NCBI GenBank assembly: GCA_963841915.1
Contig: CAWJEN010000005.1
Coordinates: 832,001 to 896,000 of the forward strand
DNA length: 64,000 nt
From: an uncultured Planctomycetota bacterium
GTDB lineage: Bacteria; Planctomycetota; Phycisphaerae; Tepidisphaerales; Tepidisphaeraceae
Reading direction: 5' to 3'
Numbering within the stretch: position 1 is the first letter of the stretch; each line of letters starts with the position of its first letter. Shown piece by piece: positions 1 through 14,270 of the stretch. A program made the translations under genes and the position numbers. The notes under the pieces are model-generated. The model did not search any database and was not told the DNA's origin. It worked only from the letters and a program-made list of their open reading frames with translations.

Positions 1-679
<679 letters not shown>

Positions 680-836
680 GGGCGACTCTATCGCCCTGCC
701 CAGCCGTGGGGTCACTGCAACCGCTGCTCAGGAATGAACAGAACCCGTACGGGCAAGGTCCGATAGTCTTTGCCCTGCCGAACGCGCTGCGCGAATGTGG
801 CCGCCGTGGCTGATCGGTCCTTAGGGGCCGGGACAA

Positions 837-1341
837 TGTTCCACGTGGAACATTGTCGAGCCCCCGCCATTGACAGCGAAGCAGGTTTTTAGTCGCCGAA
901 ATGTTCCACGTGGAACATTCTGGGGTCGTGACACGTCGCCGAGTGCGGTGGCGGGTCGTCCATACTACAGGCGAATGCACACGTTTGCTACAGGAGACAG
1001 TCCTGCTTTCGGGTACCTACTGCGACTGGGGTCGTCGGCCGTGGGAGTTTCCGCCCAGGCGCGAAAGTGGCCGCGGCGGCAATTGTTCCACGTGGAACAA
1101 TTTGACCCGAGTTGGCTCCGAACCAAAATACCAGTGCCCGCCCTACCGACCGGCGAGCCACGTGCGGAGCATCCGTGAGTGTCCGGCAGACGCAAACAGA
1201 CGGGCGAATGTTCCACGTGGAACATTCGCCCGTCGGCACCACTTCATGATGTGGCCGCTGTTCGTTGGCCTCGCCCAGGCGGGCTGGGCAGATCGCCCAC
1301 AAACGTTCGCGTGTCGACTGAGCCATGTTCCACGTGGAACA
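837..1341. promoter_or_regulatory. Cluster of five perfect parS sites (837-852, 902-917, 1084-1099, 1209-1224, 1326-1341)
   Basis: TGTTCCACGTGGAACA matches the canonical chromosomal parS consensus and lies directly downstream of parB. Confidence 0.95.
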
Positions 1342-1352
1342 TTGCCCCGCTG

Positions 1353-2327
1353 CTACGACTCGGTTTGCACCTTCAGCCGCTCCATGAGCTGGTCGAACTG
1401 CTCGGCGTTCTTGAGTGTCAGCGTCAGCTTGTAACCGCCCTTACCGGCTGCGGCGACCGTGCAAGGCGTGCCGACGGCCTTTGTCAGCGTCTCTGCCAAA
1501 CGGTTCAGATAGGTCGCACGGACCTGCGCCTCCGACTGGCCGGCTGATCCGGGCTTCGATGCCGTCATCTTCTCGAGCTGGCGGACCGACAGGTTCTCGG
1601 CCACCGCCAGCTTGGCGAGCTTGAGCTGCAGATCACGGTCGTCGACACCGGCCAGCACCTTGGCATGCCCGAGCGGCAGTTTGCCGTCCCGTGCCAGCTC
1701 AACGACCTCACCCGGCAGATCGAGCAAACGCAGGTAGTTGGCGACGCTGGTGCGTTCTTCCCCGAGTCGCCCAGCCAGTTGAGCCTGCGTCATGCCGAGC
1801 TGTCGCTGCAAATCTCGATAGGCTTCAGCCCGGTCGATCGGGTTGAGATCCTCGCGGTGAATGTTCTCGACAAGCGCCATCTCCGCCTGGGCGGCGCGTT
1901 CCACGTGGCGAACGAGGCAGGGCACCGTCTCGAGTTCGGCGAGCTTGGCTGCCCGTAGCCTTCGCTCGCCTGCGATGAGCTCGTACTTGCCGTCGTCGAG
2001 CGGGCGGACAAAGAGCGGTTGAATCACGCCGTTGACTTTGAGTGATGCAGCGAGTTCAGCCAGGGCGACAGGTCCGAAGACGCGGCGGGGCTGGTGCGGG
2101 TTGGGAACAATGTCCGCGGGCTTGAGCTGCCGAAGGACACCCGTTCGGTAGTCCGGCTCGGCTTCCTTGACTGCTTCCGCTGCAGGCGGGGTGCTGCGCA
2201 GGACCGGCTTCGACGGCGGGGCGGCCTCGTCGTCCAGCTGCATCAGGCTGCTGAGACCGCGGCCCAGGCGTGACTTGCGGTTGCCCGCGGGAGCAGAGTC
2301 TGACTTGTCCGTGTTCTTCGACGCCAT
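1353..2327 (-). CDS. parB: ParB/Spo0J chromosome partition protein
   Basis: LGRGLSSL ParA-interaction peptide, PNPHQPRR, YELIAGERRLRAA (GxRR box), ENIHREDLNP, HTH region. Confidence 0.97.
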   Translation of the reverse strand: MASKNTDKSDSAPAGNRKSRLGRGLSSLMQLDDEAAPPSKPVLRSTPPAAEAVKEAEPDYRTGVLRQLKPADIVPNPHQPRRVFGPVALAELAASLKVNGVIQPLFVRPLDDGKYELIAGERRLRAAKLAELETVPCLVRHVERAAQAEMALVENIHREDLNPIDRAEAYRDLQRQLGMTQAQLAGRLGEERTSVANYLRLLDLPGEVVELARDGKLPLGHAKVLAGVDDRDLQLKLAKLAVAENLSVRQLEKMTASKPGSAGQSEAQVRATYLNRLAETLTKAVGTPCTVAAAGKGGYKLTLTLKNAEQFDQLMERLKVQTES

Positions 2328-2340
2328 GCCAGGACATTAA

Positions 2341-2356
2341 TGTTCCACGTGGAACA
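2341..2356. promoter_or_regulatory. parS site immediately upstream of the parB start
   Basis: TGTTCCACGTGGAACA, 13 bp from the parB ATG. Confidence 0.92.
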
Positions 2357-2660
2357 TCTCAATGTTCGGCGGCGGGAACGTGGGTGTGCCTCGACAGCGC
2401 AGCGGAACAGGTCGCAGGTCCGTATCGCCTGAAACGTCCGGGGTACCGATGAGCATGGCCCAAGGTCTCGTCGTTGAGCGCAAGGTGACGATCAAGGCTA
2501 CAACAGATGGGCGGTTTTAGTTAGGTTAATGTTCGGATCTGACTCGTCACTTCTGAACGGTGCAGGGTGGGGGTCAGGCGTCTACACTTTCGACAGCAGC
2601 GGGGCGTCAACGCCTTCCGCATCAATCGAAGCGCGTCCATACGAAGCTGAACTACCCGTC

Positions 2661-3941
2661 ATGCCTTACACCTTAGAAGAAGCCCCGGCCCAGCTCCTTG
2701 TCTCCGACGGCGACACCGAAGGGGATGTCGGCTCCAACCGCTGGACGCTCAACTTTGGCCCGCAGCACCCGGCAACGCACACCACGCTTCGACTCGTCCT
2801 CGAGCTCGACGGCGAGCGCGTCGTCAAGTGCACGCCGCACATCGGCTACCTGCACAGCGGCTTCGAGAAGCTTGGCGAGCATCTCAACTACAACCAGTAT
2901 GTCACCATCGTCGACCGGATGGACTACTCGGCTCCGATCTACAACGAGCTGGCTTGGCACGATGCGGCAGAGCGGCTGATGGGTGTCCAGCTCACGCCCC
3001 GATGCACGGCACTGCGCACCATCGCCGGCGAACTGGGGCGAATTCAGAGTCACTTGCTGTGCGTCGGTGCGGTGGGGCTGGACCTCGGTGCGTTCACGAG
3101 CTTCCTGTACGGCTTCAACCAGCGCGAGCACATCTACGACATCGTCGAGTTCATGACGGGTCAGCGGTACCACACCGGCTGGACCCGCGTCGGTGGTCTC
3201 AACCAGGATCTGCCCGACGAGCACACGTTCGTCCGCATGGTCAAGAACTTCATCAACGACTCGCTGCCCGAGGCGATCGCTGACATGGAGAAGCTGCTCA
3301 ACCGCAACCGCATCTTCGTCGAGCGGACCAAGGGCATCGGCGTGCTCAGCCCCGAAGACGCCACCGCATGGGGTGTCACCGGCCCGATGGCCCGGGCCAG
3401 CGGCATCAAGCGTGACCTCCGCAAGGAAGAGCCGTACCTCTGCTTCAAGAACAACTGGGACGGAATGGGGGCCGAGGCCCCCGAGTTCACGGTCCCGGTG
3501 ATGGAGACCGGCGACGCCTATGCGCGGTTCCTGGTCCGTTGCGAAGAGATGAAGCAGTCGGCCAGCATCATCCGCCAGCTCATCGACAAGATCCCCGAAG
3601 GGCCGGTGAACGTTAGCCCCGAGGGCAAGGAGACGCTGCCGCCGAAGGACCAGGTCTACTCGAGCATCGAGGGTCTCATCCAGCACTTCGAGATGATCAT
3701 GACCAACCGCGGCTTCGAGGCCCCGCGCGGCGAGGCCTACGGCCGCATCGAAAGCGCCAACGGCGAGCTCGGTTACTACATCGTCAGCGACGGCACGAAC
3801 GTCCCGTGGCGTGTCCGCACCCGCGGCCCGATCTTCTTCAACTACCAGACCTTCGCGAAGCTGATCGAAGGCCACACGATCAGCGACGTGGTGGCGGTGC
3901 TCGGCAGCATCAACGTCATCGCCGCGGAGCTGGACCGGTGA
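2661..3941 (+). CDS. nuoD: NADH-quinone oxidoreductase subunit D
   Basis: NFGPQHPATHTTLRL, IGYLHSGFEKL, DRMDY and C-terminal GSINVIAAELDR; start taken at ATG 2661. Confidence 0.95.
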   Translation: MPYTLEEAPAQLLVSDGDTEGDVGSNRWTLNFGPQHPATHTTLRLVLELDGERVVKCTPHIGYLHSGFEKLGEHLNYNQYVTIVDRMDYSAPIYNELAWHDAAERLMGVQLTPRCTALRTIAGELGRIQSHLLCVGAVGLDLGAFTSFLYGFNQREHIYDIVEFMTGQRYHTGWTRVGGLNQDLPDEHTFVRMVKNFINDSLPEAIADMEKLLNRNRIFVERTKGIGVLSPEDATAWGVTGPMARASGIKRDLRKEEPYLCFKNNWDGMGAEAPEFTVPVMETGDAYARFLVRCEEMKQSASIIRQLIDKIPEGPVNVSPEGKETLPPKDQVYSSIEGLIQHFEMIMTNRGFEAPRGEAYGRIESANGELGYYIVSDGTNVPWRVRTRGPIFFNYQTFAKLIEGHTISDVVAVLGSINVIAAELDR

Positions 3942-3985
3942 GCGGTTCCGAGCAGGAGTCTCATGGCGATCCCGCTGTACCGCCT

Positions 3986-4259
3986 GGTGCCACGGTTTGA
4001 GCCGCATTCTGATGCGGGCAAACCGTGTCGGTGATGGTGTTTGGACAACACGGGTTCCGGACACTGGTTGAGCCGCATCAGAATGCGACCCAATCAGTGG
4101 CACCAGATGTGGCATCCGACGAGTAGGTCGAGCTACTCCAACGGTCTGGTGCCTGGTGCCACGGTTTGAGCCGCATTCTGATGCGGGCAAACCGTGTCGG
4201 GGATCGGGCGTCACCGACACGGTTTGCCCGCCGCAGACGGCGGCTCAAACCGTGGCACC
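3986..4259. repeat. Four ~44-bp REP-like palindromic units in two inverted pairs (3986-4029, 4060-4104, 4155-4198, 4216-4259)
   Basis: GGTGCCACGGTTTGAGCCGCATTCTGATGCGGGCAAACCGTGTC occurs twice, plus two diverged inverted copies; a further copy at 34772-34815. Confidence 0.85.
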
Positions 4260-4325
4260 GTTCGTCCACCTCTGTCGCACCGTTCGTCCACCTCTGTGGC
4301 ACCGTTCGTCTACCTTTGTGGCACC
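4260..4325. repeat. Three 22-bp tandem repeats
   Basis: GTTCGTCCACCTCTGTGGCACC x3 with 1-2 mismatches each. Confidence 0.9.
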
Positions 4326-4335
4326 GACGCAAAAT

Positions 4336-5091
4336 CTACGGATAATCCTGCCCGACCGGCCGGAGCGTGAGTTGATTCACGTGCACGTTCGGCGGCTGAT
4401 CGACCGTGAATTTGATCGCCCGGGCCACGTCTTCGGGCTCGAGCATGGCGCCGTACTTCTCGACGACTTTGCCGAAGGTCTCGTGGTCGTAGCCGGCGAC
4501 GTCCTGGAACTCGGTTTTGACGATGCCGGGCTTGATGGTCGTCACGCGGACGCCGCTCTTGCCGACTTCGCGGCGAAGCGCTTCGGCAGCGGCTTCGACG
4601 GCGAACTTCGTGCTGCCGTACGCGCCGCTGAAGGGCGAGACGTTTGTGCCGACGACGCTGCCAAGGACGACGATGTCGCGTGGTCCTGTGCCGTCTTTCA
4701 AGGCGTCGGCGGCGATGCGCATGAGGTGCATCGCGCCCAGCACGTTGACCTGCACCATGCTTTGCCAGGCCGATTCGTCGCTCGAGAGGATACCGCCTTG
4801 CAACCCGCGGCCGGCGTTGATGATGACGATGTCCGGCGGGCCGTCCAGTGCGACACGCGTCTCCTTCCACAGCCGATCGATGTCGGCTGTCTCGCCCGCG
4901 TCGGCGGCGATGGCGGTCGCGTCGCCGCCGACGCTTTTGATCTCGTCGACGAGTTCGTCGAGCCGTTGCTTGCGTCGGGCGCTGACGACCACGCGTGCTC
5001 CGGTCTCGGCCAGCAGCAGGGCGGTTGATCGGCCGATACCGGCCGACGCACCGGTGACAAGGGCGGTTCTGCCTTTCAGTGTTTTGCTCAC
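4336..5091 (-). CDS. SDR-family oxidoreductase
   Basis: TGASAGIG, INAG and YGSTK catalytic motif. Confidence 0.92.
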   Translation of the reverse strand: MSKTLKGRTALVTGASAGIGRSTALLLAETGARVVVSARRKQRLDELVDEIKSVGGDATAIAADAGETADIDRLWKETRVALDGPPDIVIINAGRGLQGGILSSDESAWQSMVQVNVLGAMHLMRIAADALKDGTGPRDIVVLGSVVGTNVSPFSGAYGSTKFAVEAAAEALRREVGKSGVRVTTIKPGIVKTEFQDVAGYDHETFGKVVEKYGAMLEPEDVARAIKFTVDQPPNVHVNQLTLRPVGQDYP

Positions 5092-5129
5092 GATCCAGCC
5101 TATTCCGCGCCGGGTCGTAGCATGGGCCG

Positions 5130-6381
5130 TTGTTCCCGCGGGCCCTCATCACCGGTATCGGCTGCGTTTCGCCCAACGGCGTTGGTCGTGAAGCGTTCGG
5201 CGACGCGTGCGTCGGCGGTACCAGCGGACTCAAGCGACCGACAGGCGAGGCGTATGAAGGGCTGCGGACGAGCAGCGTCGGGCAGATCTCGCCGGAGCAG
5301 TTCGATCCCGAGAGCGTGCTGCCTGCGGCGGAATTGAAGCGTTTGCCGCGGGTCGTGCCGCTGGCGTTGGCGGCAGCGACCGAGGCGCAACAACAGGCCG
5401 GGCTTGATGTCTCTGACGAATCCGTCAGCCGACGCGTCGGGCTCGTTCTCGGCACAGGCGGTGGCGGACTCGCCTTCGTCGAAGAGCAGTACAAAGGCTT
5501 TTTCACCGGCCGGCACGGTGGCAGCCCGTTCGCCATCACCGGTGGCACGCACGGCAACCTCGCCGGTGAGCTGTCCATTGCCATGGGTCTTCGCGGGCCC
5601 AGTCATGTTGTCTCCACCGGATGCGCCAGCTCGACCGACGCGCTGGGCTACGCACTCATGCTCATTCGTGCGGGCCGATGTGACGCCGTCGTGTGCGGCG
5701 GGGCGGATGCGCCGATCGCGCCCGGGATCCTGCGTGGCTTCGAACGTATGGGCGTCATCAGCACGCTTCGTTGGGATGACGCGACGTCAGTCGTGTCGGC
5801 CTTTCGATACAGATCGGGATGGTCTTGTGTTGGGCGAAGGCAGTTGGATGTTCGTCGTCGAACGCGAGGGTTGGCGAAAGGGCGTCACGCCGTTGGCACA
5901 AGTGGCCGGGTATGGCAGCACGAGCGACGCGTACCACCGCGTGCGGATCGACCCGGACGTGACCGAGTGCGTCCGAGCGATGAGCGACGCCCTGGCCGAT
6001 GCCGGCGTAACGGCAGCCGACGTCGACGCGGTGAATCTGCACGGCACGGGAACGGAAATGAACGATCGCCTCGAAACGGCGGCATTGCACAAGCTGTTGG
6101 GCGGCAGGGCGGGCGACGTGCCGATGAGCGCGACAAAGAGCCTGATCGGCCACCCGCAGGGCGCCGGCGGCAGCGCGGGCGTGGCGGCGGCTGTGCTGTC
6201 GGCACGGCGTGGTGTGGTTCACCCGACGCTTAACCTCGACACCCCCGACCCGGCGTGTGACCTCGATTACGTCCCGGGCGAAGCGCGATGCGTCGACGTG
6301 CGGACGCTGCTCTGCAACTGCATCGCGTTCGGCAGCAAGAACAGTGCACTCGTGCTGAAGGTGCACGAACCCGTCGACTGA
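5130..6381 (+). CDS. fabF: Beta-ketoacyl-ACP synthase (FabF-like); +1 frameshift near 5790; start uncertain
   Basis: Frame 1 has ITGIGCVSPNG and STGCASS (active Cys); frame 2 has RPFDTDRDGLVLGEG, HGTGT, KSLIGH and AFGSKN. Confidence 0.8.
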
Positions 6382-6412
6382 CGCCTCGACGCGGCTGCGT
6401 TACCATGCGGGC

Positions 6413-7054
6413 ATGCCTGACGACGCACCCAAGGCCCAGCCGCAGAAGACACGACCCGCGGCCCGCGTGGCGGCGGAGTTTGTGGGGCTGTCGCCTTGGA
6501 AGAAAAAGCTGCTGAGCCTCTTCATCGTCGTCGCCTCGATCGGCGGTTTGATGTGGACGCACGCGACCTTTATCAGCGAAAGCAACGCGACGCCGCCCGC
6601 GTTCATGAGCGGTGACGACACGCGACCCAACGCCGACCTGCCGCCAAACAGCCGGGGCTTTATCGACGACACGAGCGACGGCCTGGCCGAAGCGGCGGAT
6701 GAGGCCGGCGTGACGGAGGGGCAAAGCGACTGGAAGCTGCCCTGGCACGGTCGCCTCGGCGGGTGGCTGGCACGGCTGGGCGTCAGCTTCGCCGTCGGCC
6801 TGATCGTCGGTGTCTTCTTTCGAGCTTTCCTGAAGACCATGGCCGCCGTGACAGCTGTCGTCGTCGGTGGCATCGTGTGTCTGAGCTACTTCGAGGTATT
6901 CGACATCGACTTCGACGCGATGCGCCAGAACGCCGACACCGCCAGCGGCTGGGCCAAGGACCAGGCGGGCGGCCTGAAGAACATCGTCGTCAACTTCTTA
7001 CCAAGTGCGACGGCTGCGACGGTTGGTGGATTTACTGGATTCCTCCGTCGGTGA
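6413..7054 (+). CDS. Membrane protein with a FUN14-like C-terminal domain
   Basis: N-terminal TM segment; GVSFAVGLIVGVFFRAFLK...LSYFEVFDIDF...LPSATAATVGGFTG pattern. Confidence 0.65.
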   Translation: MPDDAPKAQPQKTRPAARVAAEFVGLSPWKKKLLSLFIVVASIGGLMWTHATFISESNATPPAFMSGDDTRPNADLPPNSRGFIDDTSDGLAEAADEAGVTEGQSDWKLPWHGRLGGWLARLGVSFAVGLIVGVFFRAFLKTMAAVTAVVVGGIVCLSYFEVFDIDFDAMRQNADTASGWAKDQAGGLKNIVVNFLPSATAATVGGFTGFLRR

Positions 7055-7075
7055 AAATCGTCTACAACTTTAGAT

Positions 7076-7237
7076 ATGAACAAGTCCTTCGCCCGCAAGC
7101 TCCTCTCCGTCTGTTGCCTTTTCACCCTGGCGATCATCCTCACCGGCTGTCAGTCGAACGACGGCGAAGGCAAGATGGACAACGCCGTCGACACGGATTC
7201 CGATGTCGAAGCTCGGGCCAGAGAGATCGCCAAGTAG
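7076..7237 (+). CDS. Small lipoprotein (53 aa), not in the ORF track
   Basis: MNKSFARKLLSVCCLFTLAIILTG-C signal peptide with lipobox, then QSNDGEGKMDNAVDTDSDVEARAREIAK. Confidence 0.7.
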   Translation: MNKSFARKLLSVCCLFTLAIILTGCQSNDGEGKMDNAVDTDSDVEARAREIAK

Positions 7238-7335
7238 CTCACCGGTGCCCTCCTGGGCTCGGAAGCGATCGCCTTGTCCTCAGTCCGTCCACAGTGATCT
7301 GACGCTGCTTCGCCCCAAGCCTCAGCTCAACGCAA

Positions 7336-7363
7336 AGCCCGCGGGACGATCGTCCCGCGGGCT
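7336..7363. terminator. Perfect 28-bp palindrome between convergent genes; probable bidirectional terminator
   Basis: AGCCCGCGGGACGA-TCGTCCCGCGGGCT, flanked by an A run and CTTT. Confidence 0.6.
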
Positions 7364-7445
7364 CTTTCGTGCGCCCTATAGCCCGGCATGCTTCACAGCC
7401 CAAGCCGTTAGCGCGTCGAATGTGTCTTGTTCTTCACCAGAATCT

Positions 7446-7871
7446 TCACCGGCTGGCCTGCCACAGGCGTGTCGCAACGATGGCCAGATATGACGCGAGT
7501 ACGAGGTGGAAGACGATCGGGATCATTCCCGGTGGCAGCCATCGGCGGTCCGGGTGCAGATGACCCGAGATGCCATAGCGGACGATCATTCCGCCGGCGT
7601 AGACGATTGCGAAGGCGGCTGTCGCCGTCGCTAATCGAACCCGACGCCGATCGAATGGCCACCGACCAAACGACGCGGCCACGTCGAGCTTGGCCATCGC
7701 TCCCAGGATCAGCACCTGTGCCGTCAGCAGCACAGGATACGGCAGCAGTCCCGACTGCCACTCGTCCATCGCCGGCAACCATTGCGGAGTCGCGACGACG
7801 ACCACGATCTGCCCGACGACGCGGAGCAGGAACAACGCCGACAGCAGCCACATCGCGGCTGCGGCAGTCAC
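7446..7871 (-). CDS. Small multi-pass membrane protein, function unknown
   Basis: About four hydrophobic segments; the GTG start overlaps the argH TGA (GTGA coupling). Confidence 0.65.
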   Translation of the reverse strand: MTAAAAMWLLSALFLLRVVGQIVVVVATPQWLPAMDEWQSGLLPYPVLLTAQVLILGAMAKLDVAASFGRWPFDRRRVRLATATAAFAIVYAGGMIVRYGISGHLHPDRRWLPPGMIPIVFHLVLASYLAIVATRLWQASR

Positions 7872-9297
7872 AGCCCGAGCCGCTCTTTCCACTCGGCGAG
7901 CTGCTTCTTCAGCGGCTCGCCACCGGCGGCGCCGGCCGATTGGTAGCGGGCGACGACGTTCCTCGCGCCGAGACACTCGAACACGTCGCCTTCGATCTTG
8001 TCGCTCGCCGCCTGGAACTCGTCGAGCGTCAGGTCTTGCGAGCCGTCGTCTTGCCCTCCTTCTCGCACTTGGCGACGAGGCCGCCGACGACCTGGTGGGC
8101 GGTGCGGAACGGCACGCCCTTGACGACGAGGTACTCGGCGAGGCTGGTGGCGTCCATGAACCCGCCCTCGCACGCGGCCTCGCACTTGTCCTTGACGAAC
8201 TCGGTGTTGTTCACGATCGCCGCGGCCATCGTGAGGCAGGAGCTGACGGTGTCGTAGGCGGCGAAGACGTGCCGTTTGTCTTCCTGCAGGTCGCGGTTGT
8301 AGCCGATGGGCAACCCCTTGCAGATGGTCAGCAGGGCGACGAGGTTGCCGTAGACGTTGCCGCAGCGGCCGCGGATGAGCTCGAGCATGTCCGGGTTGCG
8401 CTTCTGCGGCATCATCGAGCTGCCGGTGGTGTACTTGTCGCGCGGTCTTGATGAAGCCGAACTCGGCGGAGCAGTAGATGATCCACTGCTCGGCCCAGCG
8501 GGAGAGGTGCATCGCGGTCATCGCGCAGGCGTAGACGAAGTCGAGGGCGGCGTCGCGAGAGGCGGTGCGTTCAATGCTGCTTCGAGGTGAGGCTTCGAAG
8601 CGATAACTTGCCAGCGACGAAGCGTCGAGCCGCGTCATTGCAGGATCAAGCGGTAGCGATGAACCGGCGATCGCACCACTTCCGAGGGAGTCGCAGATCG
8701 TGTCGATGACGTGTCCTGCGCGTAGCCGATAGCGGTATTCGATCGGATGCGATCATCTCTGTCCACGCCAGAGCCTCTGCAGCCGCCGAGATTGGCTGTG
8801 CTCGTTGAAGGTGCGTGTACGACGGCATCACGACGTCTGCTGACTGCGATCCGCGAGACGCACAAAGCACGTTGAGCAGGTTGCAAAGCGTTCCAAAGCT
8901 CAAGCGAGCTGCGTCTTGTAGCCACATGCACCAGGTCCGTCGCCACCTGATCGTTCCGGCTGCGCCCCGTGTGCAGCTTGCGGCCCGGCTCGCCGACCTT
9001 GTCGATCAGGGCCTTCTCCACGCACATGTGGATGTCCTCGTACTGCTTGTCGAAGCCCGCCCAGTCCGGGCCGGCCTCGTCGATCTCGGCCTCGATCTCG
9101 CGGAGGCCGCGCTCGATGGCGGCGCGGTCGTCCTCGGTGATGAGGCCGACCTTGGCGAGCATCGCGGCGTGGGCGAGGCTGCCGGCGACGTCCTGCTTGT
9201 ACAGCCGCCAGTCGTAGCTGACGCTCTCGACGAAGTCCTGCCCAAGGGCGTCGGTCGCCTCGGCGATGCGGGCCTGCCAGCTCTTTTGTTCGCTCAT
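7868..9297 (-). CDS. argH: Argininosuccinate lyase with several frameshifts (assembly error or pseudogene)
   Basis: EDIHM, LHTGRSRNDQVATD, MPSYTHLQRAQP, SSMMPQKRNPD and YNRDLQEDK motifs spread over different frames. Confidence 0.92.
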
Positions 9298-9321
9298 GCT
9301 CGACCGTAGCAACAGCACGAA

Positions 9322-9402
9322 GCGAGCCCCGACCGTCAGGAAGGGGTTCCGGTCGGTGCCAATGCACGTTCCGAAACCCGCTCCCTCACGGTCGGGGCTC
9401 GC
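9322..9402. repeat. REP-like inverted repeat between the capsid gene and argH
   Basis: GCGAGCCCCGACCGTCAGGAAGGGGTT ... AACCCGCTCCCTCACGGTCGGGGCTCGC. Confidence 0.75.
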
Positions 9403-9426
9403 GCTCCCGACATGATGTCGATCGCC

Positions 9427-10578
9427 TTAGCTCAGTCCGGTGATGAGGCCGTGGCAGTTCTCGTTGCGGAGCTCCATCGTGTACTCACCAATGACCTGAC
9501 CGGCCTCGCGGTCGCCGGTGCGGGCCAGCGGCTTGTAGCCGAAGCTGCGACCGGCCAACGGCAGCACGCTCGCCCGGCTGCTGTCGAGCAACAGCACCGA
9601 GCCGCTTGGCATTGCCCGGCTGAGGACGACGCGGCAGACACCGAAGTCGCTTTCGTAGACGCCGATGCCGTCGCGGAACGTCTCGGCAGAGCTGGCGAAC
9701 CGCCGACCGGCGTCGGTGAACTGGTTGATGGCCCGCTTCTGCCTGCCGCCGACGACGATGGTGTCGACGGTCGTCCCGCCGCCTTGCCAGATGGTGCGGA
9801 GTGCAAGGTTGAGCTGCTCTTCGGTCAGCGTCGCATCGGCCGGAAAACCGTCGGTGTTGGGGACGAAGCGGTGCGTGGCGACGCTGGCGATGATGCCGCG
9901 CATCGTCCGCGGCGTGTAGGCGTCACCCGCCGGATTGCCGCTCGGCGGGTTGGCGTCGGCGGCACCGAGCAACAGGCTCGTCTCGAGTTCACGAAGCAGC
10001 TCGCGCAGACGCATCGCCTTCTGGTACTCGAGTTCGTCGGCCACGCCGGCTTGTCGGACGGCCAGCTCGCTGCCACTGACCTCGACGCTGGCGGCAAAGA
10101 TCTGCGTCGTGTTGGAGCGACGCGTCCGGTTGGTGAATCGGGCCGCCGCAGCGTCTGCGCCTTCGAGCTGCGGGGCTGCGATGACGATAAGGGCATCACC
10201 GACGGCCGGGTCTGCACCGACGGGCGTGCCGCCGTAACCGCGGGTCACGCGAAACTCACTGGCACCAGCGAGCTCTTCGACCCGCATGACCTCGGCCGAG
10301 TCACCGACCCGGACGAGGTCGTTGATGCGGACAAGGTCTGCCGCTTCGATGGTGATCCAGACGCCCGCGTCGAAGACGGTGACGACGGATCGATCCGGAA
10401 GCGGCGCATCTTCGAGCCATTCGTGAACAACGCCGCGGGCCGGGCGGCCGGGATCACCCAGCAGGTCGAGCAACGGCGTCTCCGTGGCGGCGGCGATGGC
10501 GACGAGATCGGCAACGTCTTCGACGTGCTCGGGCAGCTCGGCACCGGCAGAATAAGTGGCTTTTCCAGTAAAAGGCAT
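9427..10578 (-). CDS. Phage-type major capsid protein (SU10-like/DUF5309, HK97 fold inferred)
   Basis: EDVADLV...ETPLL...HEWLED, NTTQIF..SVEVSGS, RELETSLL.G, RTMRGI, YESDFG, LARTGD and GEYTMELRNE..HG.I; RBS AAGGA upstream. Confidence 0.85.
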   Translation of the reverse strand: MPFTGKATYSAGAELPEHVEDVADLVAIAAATETPLLDLLGDPGRPARGVVHEWLEDAPLPDRSVVTVFDAGVWITIEAADLVRINDLVRVGDSAEVMRVEELAGASEFRVTRGYGGTPVGADPAVGDALIVIAAPQLEGADAAAARFTNRTRRSNTTQIFAASVEVSGSELAVRQAGVADELEYQKAMRLRELLRELETSLLLGAADANPPSGNPAGDAYTPRTMRGIIASVATHRFVPNTDGFPADATLTEEQLNLALRTIWQGGGTTVDTIVVGGRQKRAINQFTDAGRRFASSAETFRDGIGVYESDFGVCRVVLSRAMPSGSVLLLDSSRASVLPLAGRSFGYKPLARTGDREAGQVIGEYTMELRNENCHGLITGLS

Positions 10579-10632
10579 GGGTTCCTTGTGAGGGTTGAGA
10601 AGCGAGGAAAGAATGACGACAAGGGCTGCGGA

Positions 10633-10866
10633 TCAGCCGCCGCGGGCGAAACGGGCGCGGAGGCTGAGGTACTCGCGGAGCAGGCCGGCGGCGGGTCGCG
10701 GACGGCTCAGCGCCTCGGCAAGCGTCGAGAAGCGGCGACGCTCCGGATCGATCGGCTCGTCCGCCGGTGGCCGCTTCGTGGGAGGCGGGCCGAGGTCTTC
10801 GCCTACGGGCTGGTGTGCGGGTGTGCCCGGCTCGACGGGTTCGGGAGGTGTGGGTTGGTCTTGCAT
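10633..10866 (-). CDS. Small Pro-rich protein (77 aa) at the scaffold-gene position between portal and capsid
   Basis: Co-oriented ORF with a disordered Pro-rich N-terminus and a helical C-terminus LAEAL...LLREYLSLRARF; function inferred from position only. Confidence 0.45.
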   Translation of the reverse strand: MQDQPTPPEPVEPGTPAHQPVGEDLGPPPTKRPPADEPIDPERRRFSTLAEALSRPRPAAGLLREYLSLRARFARGG

Positions 10867-11077
10867 GGATGTGACGTTGGAGAGGACCGAGGGCGGCCGG
10901 GGCGAACGCGTGGCGGCAGGGGGAAGTGAGTTGCGCCGGGCCAACAAGTGCGGCTCGCGACGCGTCGAGGAACGCCTTCCACGCGCCCGCCCCGGCCGTC
11001 GTCGGCGGGAGCGGAGGGAGAATGAAAACGGCAAAGGAGACGGAGCGGCCAAGGCGAACCGGTGGCTCTGGGAGGAA

Positions 11078-12694
11078 CTAATCGGGACTTGCTGCGAACT
11101 GCGGTGCTTCGTCTGTCGCGGCAGCTTCGCCGCCGTAGCCGAGCTCGCGGAGGATGACGTCCTGCGAGACACCGATGTCGCGTTTGAGCCGTGCCTGCTC
11201 AAGCCGATCGGCATCGTCGGCGGGAATCGGGTCGGGCCAGGTGATGCGGACGCGACGTTCCTGCGGCGTCGTGGCGAACAGGCCCAGCGCGTCGAGAGAG
11301 GCGAGTGCGAGCTGACAGATGTTGGCGATGCCGTTGCCGTAGTTGGCCCGCTTGCGGTCGGTACGGGCCAGCAGCGACTGGAAGGTCAGGCGCAGTGCCG
11401 AGGCGCTGGTGAGATTGCCGATGCGGCCGCGGATCGCGCCACTGGCGGCCGGGTTGACGCCGCTTGCCTTGTCGAGCGCTTCGCGTGCTTCACGGATGGC
11501 GTCGTTTTCACCGGGATTGGTTGCGCTACCACCAAACTCGAAGACGCGGGCGTCGGGGTTGTCGGCCTGCCACATCTGGCCCGGTGCGATCTTCTGGTCG
11601 AGGAAGTTGTCGATGCCGACACCGAGGTACATGCGGCTGGCCTGCAGGGCGATGCGGCCGGCGCGGTCACTGAGTCGTGTGTTGAGTTCATCCTGCAGCG
11701 GGATGAGCGGCTCGACGTCACCCGCTCCGGACCAGGCGAACGGTCGGGCAACGTTTTGCACGTGCGCCAGCGGCAGGCGGCCTAGCGGGTTGGTTCCTTC
11801 GTCCACCAGGCGGCCGTCGCGGTAAACCTGCCAGCCGCGCGGGCCGACGGCTTCGACGATGAGTGCTTCTCGAGGGTTCTTCGTCGTCGACTTCGGGAAG
11901 AAGCGGACGAGCCAGTCGCGATGGGGCGATGTCGGTTCATCGACATCGAGCGGCACGCTGTAGGCCTGCAAGTACGCGCAGGCCCGGCTGCCGTCGTCGG
12001 GGTGAAGGATTGGCAGTGACCGAGCGGGCTCGACGAGTTCGAGCCGAACGCGATTGGCCAGGGCGGTGGTTTCTGCATCGCCGTCACCGATGCCACCACC
12101 AAACGGGGCGACGTCGCAGGCTTGGATTTCAGACTCGGGCACGACCTTCACGAGCACGTCGGCTGAGCCGTAGATGCTGCCGACGAGTGCGAAGGTCTGA
12201 AGGAAGCCGAGTCCGCCGTTGCTGGCGATCATGGAGCGGAGCAGGTCACCGATGACCTTGGCTCGCTTGGGATCGGGTGCGATTGATTCGAGCGTGAACG
12301 GGCGGCCGAAGAGGAAGTCGACGTTGGTGTCGATCCTCCAGCCGATGTCGTTCTCGACGACGACCTCCTTGCGACTCATCGTTGTCGGCACGCCACCGAA
12401 CGGTTCGCGGCCGGCGGTGAAGCCGGTGATGCGGGGCGGCATGCCCCATTCCTGGGCTTGCCTGTAAGAGCGGGCCGAGCCGTCGGTCGGGGTGAAGGCC
12501 CGGTGCGGGTTGCTGTAGTACGACCAAAGGCGGCGGTAGCGGACCGCGTCATCGTCGAGCAGCTCGCGGGCGGCCTTGTCGATCCGTTTGGCGGCGGCGA
12601 GGGAACCATCGAGCATCGGGTGACCGGCGTCGGTGGGTTGGGCGATGTCTCGCAGGTCGTACCGTGGTGGTCGGTCGCTAGTTCGGTGCGGCAT
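11078..12694 (-). CDS. Phage portal protein, SPP1 gp6-like
   Basis: ENDIGWRIDTNVDFLFGRP, NPLGRLPLAHVQN...GDVEPLIPLQDELNTRLSD, SASALRL...LLARTDRKR and ITWPDPIP...GVSQDVILRELGY; start uncertain (12616-12727). Confidence 0.87.
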   Translation of the reverse strand: MPHRTSDRPPRYDLRDIAQPTDAGHPMLDGSLAAAKRIDKAARELLDDDAVRYRRLWSYYSNPHRAFTPTDGSARSYRQAQEWGMPPRITGFTAGREPFGGVPTTMSRKEVVVENDIGWRIDTNVDFLFGRPFTLESIAPDPKRAKVIGDLLRSMIASNGGLGFLQTFALVGSIYGSADVLVKVVPESEIQACDVAPFGGGIGDGDAETTALANRVRLELVEPARSLPILHPDDGSRACAYLQAYSVPLDVDEPTSPHRDWLVRFFPKSTTKNPREALIVEAVGPRGWQVYRDGRLVDEGTNPLGRLPLAHVQNVARPFAWSGAGDVEPLIPLQDELNTRLSDRAGRIALQASRMYLGVGIDNFLDQKIAPGQMWQADNPDARVFEFGGSATNPGENDAIREAREALDKASGVNPAASGAIRGRIGNLTSASALRLTFQSLLARTDRKRANYGNGIANICQLALASLDALGLFATTPQERRVRITWPDPIPADDADRLEQARLKRDIGVSQDVILRELGYGGEAAATDEAPQFAASPD

Positions 12695-13070
12695 GACCGG
12701 CCGAATGCGTTGCGCCGATTTGGCCAAATCGGCGCAACAGGCCGCGATTTTCAGAAGCGAGGGCGAATCTGGCGCAGCTACAAGGGTTCAAGCTGATCGA
12801 TGCGCGCTGCGCGTATTTGGCCGCAGACGCGCTTTACAGACTCGGCGGCCGTTGCAATGTGGCAGAACGCGTCGCGGGTACAGCACTATCGGTCGCCGAT
12901 GTGGTGTGGGCGATGGTTGATTCACGTCGCATGGGCCGGTAGGGTCGCTGTCCCGCCCGCGTCGGCTCATCTCGCTGTGCCGCACCCGAGCGGCGGCGGG
13001 CCGACGTTCCTGCCAGTTACCGGTAAGCGTCGTCTTACGGGTGATTGCCCCCGCTACCGTTCGCCGCGTC

Positions 13071-14270
13071 ATGCCCCGCGACCCGTCGACCCTTCTTAAC
13101 GTCAAGCTTGCCTCGGCCGCCGCTGCCGTCGCACTCTTCGCCTCCGTCGCCCACGGTCAGGATGCCCCTGCGCCGGTCAACGACGTCCCGACCAACGTCC
13201 GCAACAGCAGTGACGCGTCGGGGATACGTCAGCAGTTGGATGGTTTCTTTACGACGCAGGTCGGCAAGCTGCGTGGCGAGGACCACGCTGCCGCCGCCAG
13301 CGCCGGGCGAGCCATCGCCGCCGCCGCCGGTGGTGACACGAGTCCGACCTACCGCGATCAATACACCCGCGCCGCTGCCGACGCCTTGTCGCCGTTGTTC
13401 GAGGCTGGCGACACGAAGGCAGACCTGCCCGCCCGCCTGGCCGCAGCCGTGGCGATGGAGTCGGTCGCCCGTCAGACGTCCAACGCGCGCCTCATCAAGC
13501 CGGTCGAGAGCATTATCGCCGACGAGCACCCGGCGGTGGCCTTGTGGGGCATCCGCGCGTCGCAACCGCTCATCGCCACCAGCGTGCGTCAGGCCATGGT
13601 TGGTCGTGAACCGCTCGTCGAGGCCATCGTCAAGTCCGTCGAGCAGCACCCGACGCAGGGGTACATTGCCCACGAGGCGTACATCGTGCTCCGCGACGTC
13701 GGTGGCGGCGGCTTTGTCCAGGGAAATGCAGACTTTGTTGTGCCCAGTTCAGGCCGGGCGCAGGTGATCGATGCGACGCTCAGCCTGATCGAGACGCGGC
13801 TTGGCGCTTATGGCCCACCCAAGGACGTGGAGGTCAGCCCGCTGCCGCAGACGCCGCCCGTGCCGCTGGCCGAGCGACCGGCGACGCAGCTTCTGGCCAG
13901 CGGAGCCGTTTATCCGTCGCTCGACGCTGCCCAGCAGACGCGGATCCGCGTGGTGTTGCGTGACCTGGCCAAGGCCAGCGGCGAAGCGGCGGCCGTCGCT
14001 GCCGGGGCCACATCAGAGGCCGAGAGCGAAGACCGTGAGCCACTTTCGCAAGCTCGAGACGAATTACGTAACCTGCTGACAGTCACCGCACAGGCGACCG
14101 CTTCGCTTGCTGGCACGTCGTTCGAGAACAAGCCGACGGTTGCCGAAGAGGGCCAGCGAGTTTCGGAACTGCCTCGCAGTGCGACGGCTGAGACGATCCG
14201 CGAGCGGATGGAATCCTTTATGGCGTCGTTGAGCGAGGCATATCCCGATTTGCCTGCTGCTTCGGAGTAA
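13071..14270 (+). CDS. Secreted alpha-helical (HEAT-like) hypothetical protein
   Basis: Signal peptide ending VAHG-QD; Ala-rich helical repeats. Confidence 0.7.
   Translation: MPRDPSTLLNVKLASAAAAVALFASVAHGQDAPAPVNDVPTNVRNSSDASGIRQQLDGFFTTQVGKLRGEDHAAAASAGRAIAAAAGGDTSPTYRDQYTRAAADALSPLFEAGDTKADLPARLAAAVAMESVARQTSNARLIKPVESIIADEHPAVALWGIRASQPLIATSVRQAMVGREPLVEAIVKSVEQHPTQGYIAHEAYIVLRDVGGGGFVQGNADFVVPSSGRAQVIDATLSLIETRLGAYGPPKDVEVSPLPQTPPVPLAERPATQLLASGAVYPSLDAAQQTRIRVVLRDLAKASGEAAAVAAGATSEAESEDREPLSQARDELRNLLTVTAQATASLAGTSFENKPTVAEEGQRVSELPRSATAETIRERMESFMASLSEAYPDLPAASE

Follow-up and report, generated by a model that had tools for sequence, protein, structure and literature searches.

A portal, mini-scaffold and capsid module with an unlinked terminase in the Tepidisphaeraceae: the putative head part of a phage-derived, gene transfer agent-like particle system

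Introduction

Capsid-forming phage-inducible chromosomal islands (cf-PICIs) encode a terminase, a portal, scaffold or head proteins and a capsid of their own, and no tail; they are mobile islands with an integrase, regulation and replication genes, and connectors to helper tails. Encapsulins, to our knowledge, have neither a portal nor a terminase. The head of RcGTA, a gene transfer agent (GTA), is siphovirus-like and matured by a protease. Here we report on a stretch of 64,000 nucleotides (the window: positions 832,001 to 896,000 of contig CAWJEN010000005.1, assembly GCA_963841915.1) from an uncultured member of the Tepidisphaeraceae, class Phycisphaerae, phylum Planctomycetota. The window carries a stand-alone module of three genes, for a portal, a 77-aa protein and a major capsid protein, and a large terminase subunit (TerL) that appears to belong with them is encoded on another contig. 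As in the RcGTA-type GTAs, the phage-derived structural and packaging genes of the window system appear to be chromosomally fixed at more than one locus, vertically inherited and under purifying selection, without integrase or replication genes.

The GTA lineages given as known in a 2024 review (PMC11841831) are the RcGTA type, BaGTA, VSH-1, Dd1 and VTA; by the passages of that review, verified GTAs come from only a handful of lineages, and how often, and why, bacteria tame phage particles is an open question. The same passages mention neither Planctomycetes nor Phycisphaerae, and together with titles and abstracts in the wider literature they yielded no description of a Phycisphaerae system. 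A preliminary description of the window had proposed a maintained, host-owned head module, either as part of a GTA whose genes are scattered through the genome or as a tail-less compartment with a portal.

Results

The module spans positions 9427-12727 of the window and consists of three uninterrupted minus-strand open reading frames (ORFs) in the same orientation between argH and opp (Table 1). The preliminary description had placed three such ORFs here, which is confirmed; the upstream end that it gave, 12694, is the first in-frame ATG of the portal gene. The portal protein matched the Pfam family SPP1_portal (PF05133) with an E value of 1.8e-7 and 31 bits (gathering cut-off 25.5), and phrog_104 of the PHROGs with E 2.9e-18. 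An AlphaFold model built on 20 orthologues had a predicted local distance difference test (pLDDT) score of 71.5. All 40 of the PDB matches listed by Foldseek for this model were phage portals, with template modelling scores of ~0.5 and the 80alpha portal as the best match (E 2.4e-13), so that the portal fold foreseen earlier is borne out by the model. The protein keeps all 54 invariant columns of a 20-sequence alignment. Score and predicted fold both argue for membership in PF05133, the SPP1 gp6-like portals.

The capsid protein matched SU10_MCP (PF17236) with E 2.4e-79 and 267.4 bits (cut-off 24.1) over profile positions 11-291 of 292, and phrog_1328 with E 1.9e-70. Across 21 orthologues there are 78 invariant columns, all of which are kept, and the profile of these orthologues matched the solved capsids 9ny2_A (E 9.2e-34), 9in6_M and 7z45_A, in agreement with the HK97-type fold that had been suspected. 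By these profile matches the product is, unambiguously, predicted to be a major capsid protein of the SU10/DUF5309 type.

The 77-aa ORF between the two had no match in Pfam or the PHROGs. Its proline-rich N-terminus is followed by a C-terminal helix motif, LLREYLSLRARF, and it aligns with ORFs of 55-105 aa at the equivalent position in 12 other loci, the labelled ones being Tepidisphaerales; P27, P28, L67 and R70 are invariant in this alignment. The motif LLxEYLRLRRAxR is found at the C-terminus of these short ORFs and also ends the proteins of ~136-267 aa that occupy this position elsewhere in the Phycisphaerae. Weak matches to Phage_scaffold (PF06810) or scaffold PHROGs (phrog_2303) were obtained for several of these longer scaffolds (~185 aa). 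An ORF of the congener G001 connects both sets, with a match of 6e-9 to the mini-scaffold hidden Markov model (HMM) and 56% identity to the window ORF over 45 aa. Because its C-terminal motif also ends the longer scaffolds of other Phycisphaerae, the 77-aa ORF is predicted to be a truncated scaffolding protein (hereafter mini-scaffold), shortened from ~185 to 77 aa. The preliminary description had the presence and position of this ORF right but missed its scaffold identity, which emerged from the shared motif and the G001 orthologue. Only one of the 31,578 ORFs of the genome ends in the motif, namely the mini-scaffold itself; the mean for shuffled sequences is 0.25.

A terminase was reached by tblastn, starting from the TerL encoded near the module in the relatives G015 and G032. 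The TerL of the window's genome (G000) has 476 aa and lies on a different contig from the window (Table 1). It matched phrog_2 (E 2.2e-18) and is the sole Terminase_6C match in the genome (E 1.7e-6), with Walker A motif, DE pair, Cys4 cluster and acidic nuclease residues intact. At a distance of 43 bp upstream lies a gene for a 172-aa helix-turn-helix (HTH) protein that resembles a small terminase subunit (TerS): it has a weak match to a TerS PHROG (7e-4) and viral HTH_23/Terminase_5 neighbours in the Atlas. A TerS-like protein also precedes TerL in G019, G030 and G031. The distance between TerL and capsid genes in single-contig genomes ranges from 10 kb to 1 Mb, and in G032 and the loci L059 and L061 the TerL orthologue adjoins the portal gene.

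Among 40 relatives, capsid, portal and TerL are all present in 21, all missing from 12 and partly present in seven (G002, G011, G018, G035, G029, G030 and G038). In an even sample of 401 Phycisphaerae genomes the capsid was detected in 207 (E <= 1e-20; 187 of the 353 high-quality genomes) and TerL in 233. Tallies per family run parallel for the two genes: both are absent from f4 (0/15 each), f14 (0/22 each) and f18 (0/22 each), and in f12 the capsid was found in 18 and TerL in 19 of 19 genomes. The capsid is likewise near-universal in f3 (21/22), f13 (25/28) and f22 (17/20). Of the 63 genomes of family f1, 42 have both genes, 18 neither and three only one of them. All of these counts are descriptive only, kin not being independent; G006, a genome with neither, enters the tallies only. 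Because TerL co-occurs with the capsid and its orthologue adjoins the portal in some loci, we infer that the terminase is cognate to the capsid/portal system.

The surroundings of the TerL gene hold further genes. Just upstream of the TerS-like gene are those for a 303-aa P-loop ATPase (phrog_11143/phrog_293; weak nSTAND_NTPase5 match) and a GNAT acetyltransferase. Homologues of the ATPase, at 27-35% identity, adjoin TerL in G028, G030, G031 and G039, and a PHROG-matched ATPase is found near TerL in G032; the ATPase may be a further conserved component of the system. A 1737-aa RHS-repeat protein is encoded 3.5 kb downstream of TerL, in a region that is non-syntenic among congeners. In G032, genes for a PemK/MazF-like toxin, a 90-aa ORF and a DUF6941 protein lie between TerL and portal and look like a toxin-antitoxin-like insert.

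In the 3.63-Mb genome of the window, capsid and portal have one match each, and each was found in 24 of the 40 nearest genomes. The class sample usually gave one capsid match per genome, with internal stops in none of the 150 matches listed. Outside the Phycisphaerae, 31 of ~377 Planctomycetota had a capsid match (E <= 1e-10), among them 17 of f76 and five of f59, and in a collection with one genome per species at least 509 of 600 candidate stretches encode a relative. In IMG/VR, capsid relatives occur in only six loci. Three of these have 46-53% identity, one being a copy of the long cluster described below; the other three have 34% identity and resemble genuine phages in that a single block holds their TerL, portal, scaffold and capsid genes. 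Cultured phages reach at most 34% identity for the capsid and 31% for the portal, over partial lengths only; the best cultured-phage capsid match has 30.7% over 88%, and Pseudomonas phages make up 99 of the 121 records matched. The gene order argH-capsid-portal-409aa-opp is kept in three congeners, and other loci of the same family also have argH close to the capsid gene. The single copy that the preliminary description had named as a check is thus seen.

Genomes of f6 contain a far more divergent, contiguous version, with a TerL of 32% identity followed by an ORF of portal size (473 aa) and by genes resembling D and f18; the window's capsid as query did not retrieve the capsid of this version. 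The window's genome also has an unrelated prophage-like region, ~650 kb from the window, with a terminase of the GpA type, a portal of the lambda family (E 1.6e-43), a head protease and a GP7-type capsid that is split into ORFs of 134 and 191 aa. A head-tail joining protein, a tail tube, a tail fibre of the collagen/C1q kind and an excisionase-like HTH protein are also encoded there, and a weak second 'capsid' match falls within this region.

Quick maximum-likelihood trees were built for the capsid (21 rows, without G002, G008, G010 and G024) and for TerL (24 rows, without the partial G008, G010 and G038). In both, family f1 forms one side of a branch (support 99 for the capsid and 94 for TerL), the genus comes out as monophyletic (100) and the two genomes of f2 group as sisters; none of 500 label shuffles was as good in either tree. 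Pairwise identities correlated with those of the host protein NuoD, with r = 0.90 for TerL, 0.70 for the portal and 0.60 for the capsid. Both trees therefore follow taxonomy, the congruence that had been named as a check.

Within the genus, the ratios of nonsynonymous to synonymous divergence (dN/dS, NG86) were 0.23-0.29 for the capsid, 0.29-0.33 for the portal and 0.22-0.27 for TerL, comparable with host genes such as the neighbouring oppA (0.23-0.37); the values for NuoD were 0.12-0.17, and dS for these five genes was 0.6-1.1. The TerS-like gene gave 0.45-0.58 and the mini-scaffold (41-56 codons) 0.47-0.74. All of these ratios are rough, as dS over the whole set is 0.6-1.7, near saturation, and the GC content of third codon positions is extreme (~0.8). 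YN00 gave no value for most pairs. The low dN/dS that the preliminary description had looked for is thus found in the three large genes and, with the single copy, the synteny, the taxonomy-following trees and the few relatives on viral contigs, it upholds the proposal of a maintained, host-owned head module. From these comparisons of sequences we conclude that the genes are: i) fixed in the host and vertically inherited, ii) under purifying selection, and iii) co-retained though unlinked.

To describe the fuller clusters of relatives, the proteins of ~100 loci were clustered, some genomes being counted twice in overlapping locus sets. A short form, in loci labelled Tepidisphaerales, comprises portal, mini-scaffold, capsid and the protein families D, E, F and G. 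In the long form, found in other orders, the families f36, f7, f10, f13, f23 (LamG), f9 (~600 aa), f17 and f22 are inserted between D and E. Long clusters are flanked by housekeeping genes, e.g., MurD, PurB, M16 peptidases, an aminopeptidase, DksA and YacG, and no integrase, replication or lysis family was found in the clusters or their flanks. The model of D (pLDDT 89.3) gave no Foldseek match at E <= 0.001. An exhaustive structural search with VIA-align returned phage neck and head-to-tail adaptor proteins, from Mu (5ydn_A, Z 8.4), Moo19, GP4, P74-26, SU10 (7z47_A, Z 6.8) and HK97 (gp6, Z 6.0), with Z values that are middling (6-8.4) and rows that are consistent; a language-model lead to Mu Gp36 agrees with these matches. 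By its best fold matches, D is a candidate head-to-tail adaptor. In E a coiled coil comes after a short hydrophobic stretch, and F carries a lipoprotein signal, which suggests a spanin-like pair. A PHROG scan of 59 proteins yielded three scaffolds, two TerL, structural or unknown-function families on two proteins (of which one bears LamG), a single weak spanin and two unrelated flank genes; no PHROG match was obtained for D, E, F, G, f7, f9, f10, f13, f17 and f22 among the accessory families, and PDB sequence profiles of D, f9 and f10 gave nothing below E 0.1.

The window's genome was then compared with these families. HMMs of D, E, F, G, the full scaffold, f7, f9, f10, f12, f13, f17, f18 and f22, run against its 31,578 six-frame ORFs at E <= 1, found nothing better than E = 0.04, a result compatible with divergence beyond recognition. 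The f9 profile matched none of 24 same-family genomes and five of 16 others. The D profile matched eight of the 24, none of the four congeners, and neither G019 nor G020 nor G008, all three of which keep capsid, portal and TerL; the capsids of G019 and G020 are 55-61% identical to that of the window. Because D is also missing from G019, G020 and G008, the neck-less state is older than the genus. The earlier idea of a piece of a GTA dispersed over the genome holds in part: a TerS-like/TerL pair that co-occurs with the capsid does lie on another contig, but the adaptor, spanin-like and tail-like profiles find nothing genome-wide. By these searches, a complete GTA is not encoded in this genome.

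The setting of the module in the window is cellular. Pfam searches of 46 further window proteins gave cellular families only, e.g., ParB, NuoD, FabG/F, opp, MreB, ThiG, AddAB and ArgJ, and no terminase, protease, tail, integrase, replication or lysis families. No tRNA gene is present in the 64 kb, and no direct repeats bracket the module, the longest exact pairs being of 14 nt and none at the module flanks. The GC content of the module region (0.65-0.69) lies within the range of the window (0.60-0.69). The capsid ATG is preceded at 6 nt by AAGGAA. A host-like composition, a clear ribosome binding site before the capsid gene, and the lack of att-like repeats and of other phage genes in the 64 kb had all been asserted by the preliminary description and stand. 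Its placing of the module among core genes needs a qualification: the neighbours are cellular, but argH is not intact in the source assembly, with ~4 frame changes. There is one frame change in the congener G001, and argH is intact in G004; the changes reflect either indel errors in few-contig assemblies or real decay of argH beside the module. The nuoD of G001 has two in-frame TGA codons, and G000 and G001, as few-contig assemblies, may both carry indel errors. An active or recent prophage was rejected: no integrase, replication, lysogeny or lysis families were seen among the 46 proteins, no tRNA and no bracketing repeats were found, and three congeners have the same site.

Several features near the module are of separate interest. 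The divergently transcribed 409-aa protein upstream of the portal has a signal-peptide-like N-terminus and no family match. Its position is kept in the genus with an identity of only 44-47% and a dN/dS of 0.44-0.56, as in a fast-evolving gene. A perfect palindrome, GTTGCGCCGATTTGG/CCAAATCGGCGCAAC, lies 15 nt upstream of the portal ATG and occurs once in the genome. It was not found in congeners at <=4 mismatches, although different palindromes occur close to the portal starts of congeners. It could act as an operator or form a 5' hairpin, and may or may not belong to the particle system. A scan of positions 9000-13300 for sigma-70 promoters and terminators gave no promoter and one terminator-like site where 2.2 are expected, and is uninformative for this phylum. 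Two ORFs that G004 has between its capsid gene and argH (127 and 96 aa) were set aside as apparently spurious, being of low complexity and having neither family nor conserved homologues.

Table 1. Coordinates of the module, its neighbours and related regions (window positions unless a contig or locus is given)
Feature	Coordinates	Strand	Remarks
Major capsid protein, predicted SU10/DUF5309 type, 383 aa	9427-10578	-	PF17236, phrog_1328
77-aa ORF, predicted truncated ('mini') scaffolding protein	10633-10866	-	C-terminal motif LLREYLSLRARF; position between portal and capsid
Portal gene	11078-12727	-	549 aa from TTG; 538 aa from first in-frame ATG at 12694
Perfect palindrome, 30 nt	12709-12738	.	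two 15-nt arms, 100% complementary, no spacer
argH	7868-9318	-	flanking gene
409-aa protein	13041-14270	+	divergently transcribed neighbour
TerL	G000:C6:1187743-1189173		other contig than window
P-loop ATPase and GNAT acetyltransferase	G000:C6:1185161-1187026 (L035:7162-9027)		upstream of TerS-like/TerL
RHS-repeat protein	G000:C6:1192714-1197927 (L035:14715-19928)		downstream of TerL
Prophage-like region	G000:C5:181000-200999 (L036)		unrelated to the module
Divergent contiguous version, f6	L149 (G029:C3) 574-10855		
Toxin-antitoxin-like insert	L028 (G032:C13) 13178-14222		between TerL and portal

Discussion

The reading that we favour, with a probability of roughly 0.6, is that the module is the head part of an ancient phage-derived, GTA-like particle system, fixed long ago in Phycisphaerae chromosomes, of which this Tepidisphaeraceae genus retains no more than five genes that can be recognised, still under selection. 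The five remaining genes would be those for portal, truncated scaffold and capsid at the argH-opp site and for the TerS-like protein and TerL on the other contig. Judging from the roles of these protein families, the C-terminal helix of the scaffold would recruit capsid subunits around the portal dodecamer, giving a procapsid, and TerS and TerL would pump DNA through the portal into the head. The co-retained terminase favours DNA rather than protein as cargo. With adaptor, tail and lysis genes all undetected, what is assembled would be a head without a tail, neither infectious nor injecting. The cell might benefit from it by releasing DNA in protected form, in defence, or in some way that nobody has yet thought of.

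A number of observations weigh against this reading. Heads without adaptor or plug normally leak packaged DNA, so that the proposed product is perhaps unstable. The congener G002 (89% completeness) has only capsid residues 186-383, beside a run of N, and no portal, with TerL intact; this state may reflect loss or misassembly. Mapped on a tree of 28 NuoD rows that resolves the family poorly and omits G001, whose NuoD is broken, the presence and absence of the system takes nine changes, no fewer than the mean after shuffling (9.0); at least four are required by the branches with good support. A patchy distribution, named beforehand as a sign of a decaying remnant, is thus seen in part, namely within the family. 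The stem branch of the genus is long (0.5 for the capsid and 0.41 for TerL, against 0.2 for NuoD), so that constraint may have been relaxed. The accessory genes were shed stepwise, D in a subclade, E and G in G019 and F in the window's genus, which resembles slow decay. Finally, the near-saturated dS and extreme base composition make the dN/dS values approximate.

Several of these points are what a decaying remnant without present function would predict, that is, last intact pieces that erode slowly and look constrained only through saturated divergence estimates. The stepwise loss of D, E, F, G and all tail-like genes in the lineage, the patchy presence in the family, the capsid fragment of G002 with its missing portal and the long capsid branch to the genus would all fit. 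We nevertheless consider such a remnant unlikely: three genes of 1.1-1.6 kb, unlinked or loosely linked, are open in G000, G001, G003, G004, G019 and G020 at a dS of 0.6-1.3 and a dN/dS of 0.22-0.54; all catalytic motifs of TerL and the invariant columns of capsid and portal are kept; and capsid and TerL are kept or lost jointly, as is expected of a functional unit.

Less probable again is exaptation as a protein compartment or for another role without DNA: a shell of the encapsulin kind, based on a portal. The mini-scaffold helix would then serve in the manner of a cargo-loading peptide, and the terminase would either be unrelated or moonlight. The scaffold has indeed shrunk, across Tepidisphaerales loci, to a short peptide ending in a conserved helix, and neck, tail and lysis genes were not found. 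However, the C-terminal motif is borne by the mini-scaffold alone (1 of 31,578 ORFs), no cargo-like enzyme gene is conserved beside the module, and a protein compartment would need neither the portal nor the catalytically intact TerL that are co-retained. A satellite-like head kit, comparable to the cf-PICIs and borrowing helper tails, e.g., from the prophage-like region at G000:C5:181-201 kb, is in our view very improbable. The set of TerS, TerL, portal, scaffold and capsid without a tail does resemble cf-PICI head modules, and the separate prophage-like region supplies a tail tube and a collagen-like fibre; yet integrase, repressor and replication genes and att-like repeats were not found, nor was an adaptor or connector for tail docking, the position is fixed and descent vertical, and the resident prophage uses an unrelated, lambda-family portal system.

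If the favoured reading of a selected, GTA-like head system is true, the family adds a whole class of Planctomycetota to the GTA-like systems, given the detection of its capsid in 207 and its TerL in 233 of 401 genomes. The surprise is a head-only state under selection, which is at odds with the delivery model of GTAs. A bolder proposal, which we put forward tentatively and regard as rather doubtful, is that this is a new functional kind of virus-derived organelle: a portal-bearing capsid with its own terminase that packs DNA of the cell into tail-less heads, not for injection but to some other end (protected release, storage or defence), and has been kept over family-level timescales since neck, tail and lysis genes were discarded, Phycisphaerae having a class-wide, hitherto undescribed GTA-like system of podovirus-like ancestry with a scattered terminase. 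The long form with adaptor and tail-like genes, the short form with adaptor and spanin-like genes, and the head-plus-terminase form of the window make a natural series, and comparing the three could reveal which parts the host uses. The mini-scaffold, with 77 aa against ~185 aa, would be a compact natural example of a capsid-nucleating peptide.

Compared with the described systems, the window system has features of several. As in GTAs, the genes are fixed without integration and replication genes, and they show vertical descent and purifying selection, though their presence is patchy within the family; the complete particle set of neck, tail and release genes was not found by profile searches of the window's genome. 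It differs from RcGTA in belonging to another phylum and in its unrelated families (an SU10/DUF5309 capsid, a scaffold and a podovirus-like long form). It falls outside the cf-PICIs, since searches gave no integrase, regulation, replication or connector genes and the locus is syntenic across the genus. With encapsulins it would share a host-encoded shell protein of HK97 fold, and the short C-terminal peptide that binds the interior of the encapsulin shell is a possible analogy for the mini-scaffold; unlike encapsulins, it has a conserved portal and TerL, with no motif-bearing cargo found, which places it outside that class too.

The same capsid family is found in SU10-like and LUZ24-like (Bruynoghevirus) podoviruses and in the IMG/VR contigs L183 and L184. 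The IMG/VR phages have TerL, portal, scaffold and capsid in this order in one block, with other genes between portal and scaffold, a capsid identity of 34% and a TerL that matches the family HMM. Theirs are complete genomes with contiguous terminase and tail, whereas the window genes are distant in sequence and stand amid housekeeping genes. The longer Phycisphaerae cluster has an adaptor candidate (D), spanin-like E/F, G, LamG, beta-helix and ~600-aa tail-like genes that the window is without, and shares with it the portal (37-65% identity), the capsid (49-79%), the scaffold at the level of the motif, and an unlinked TerL.

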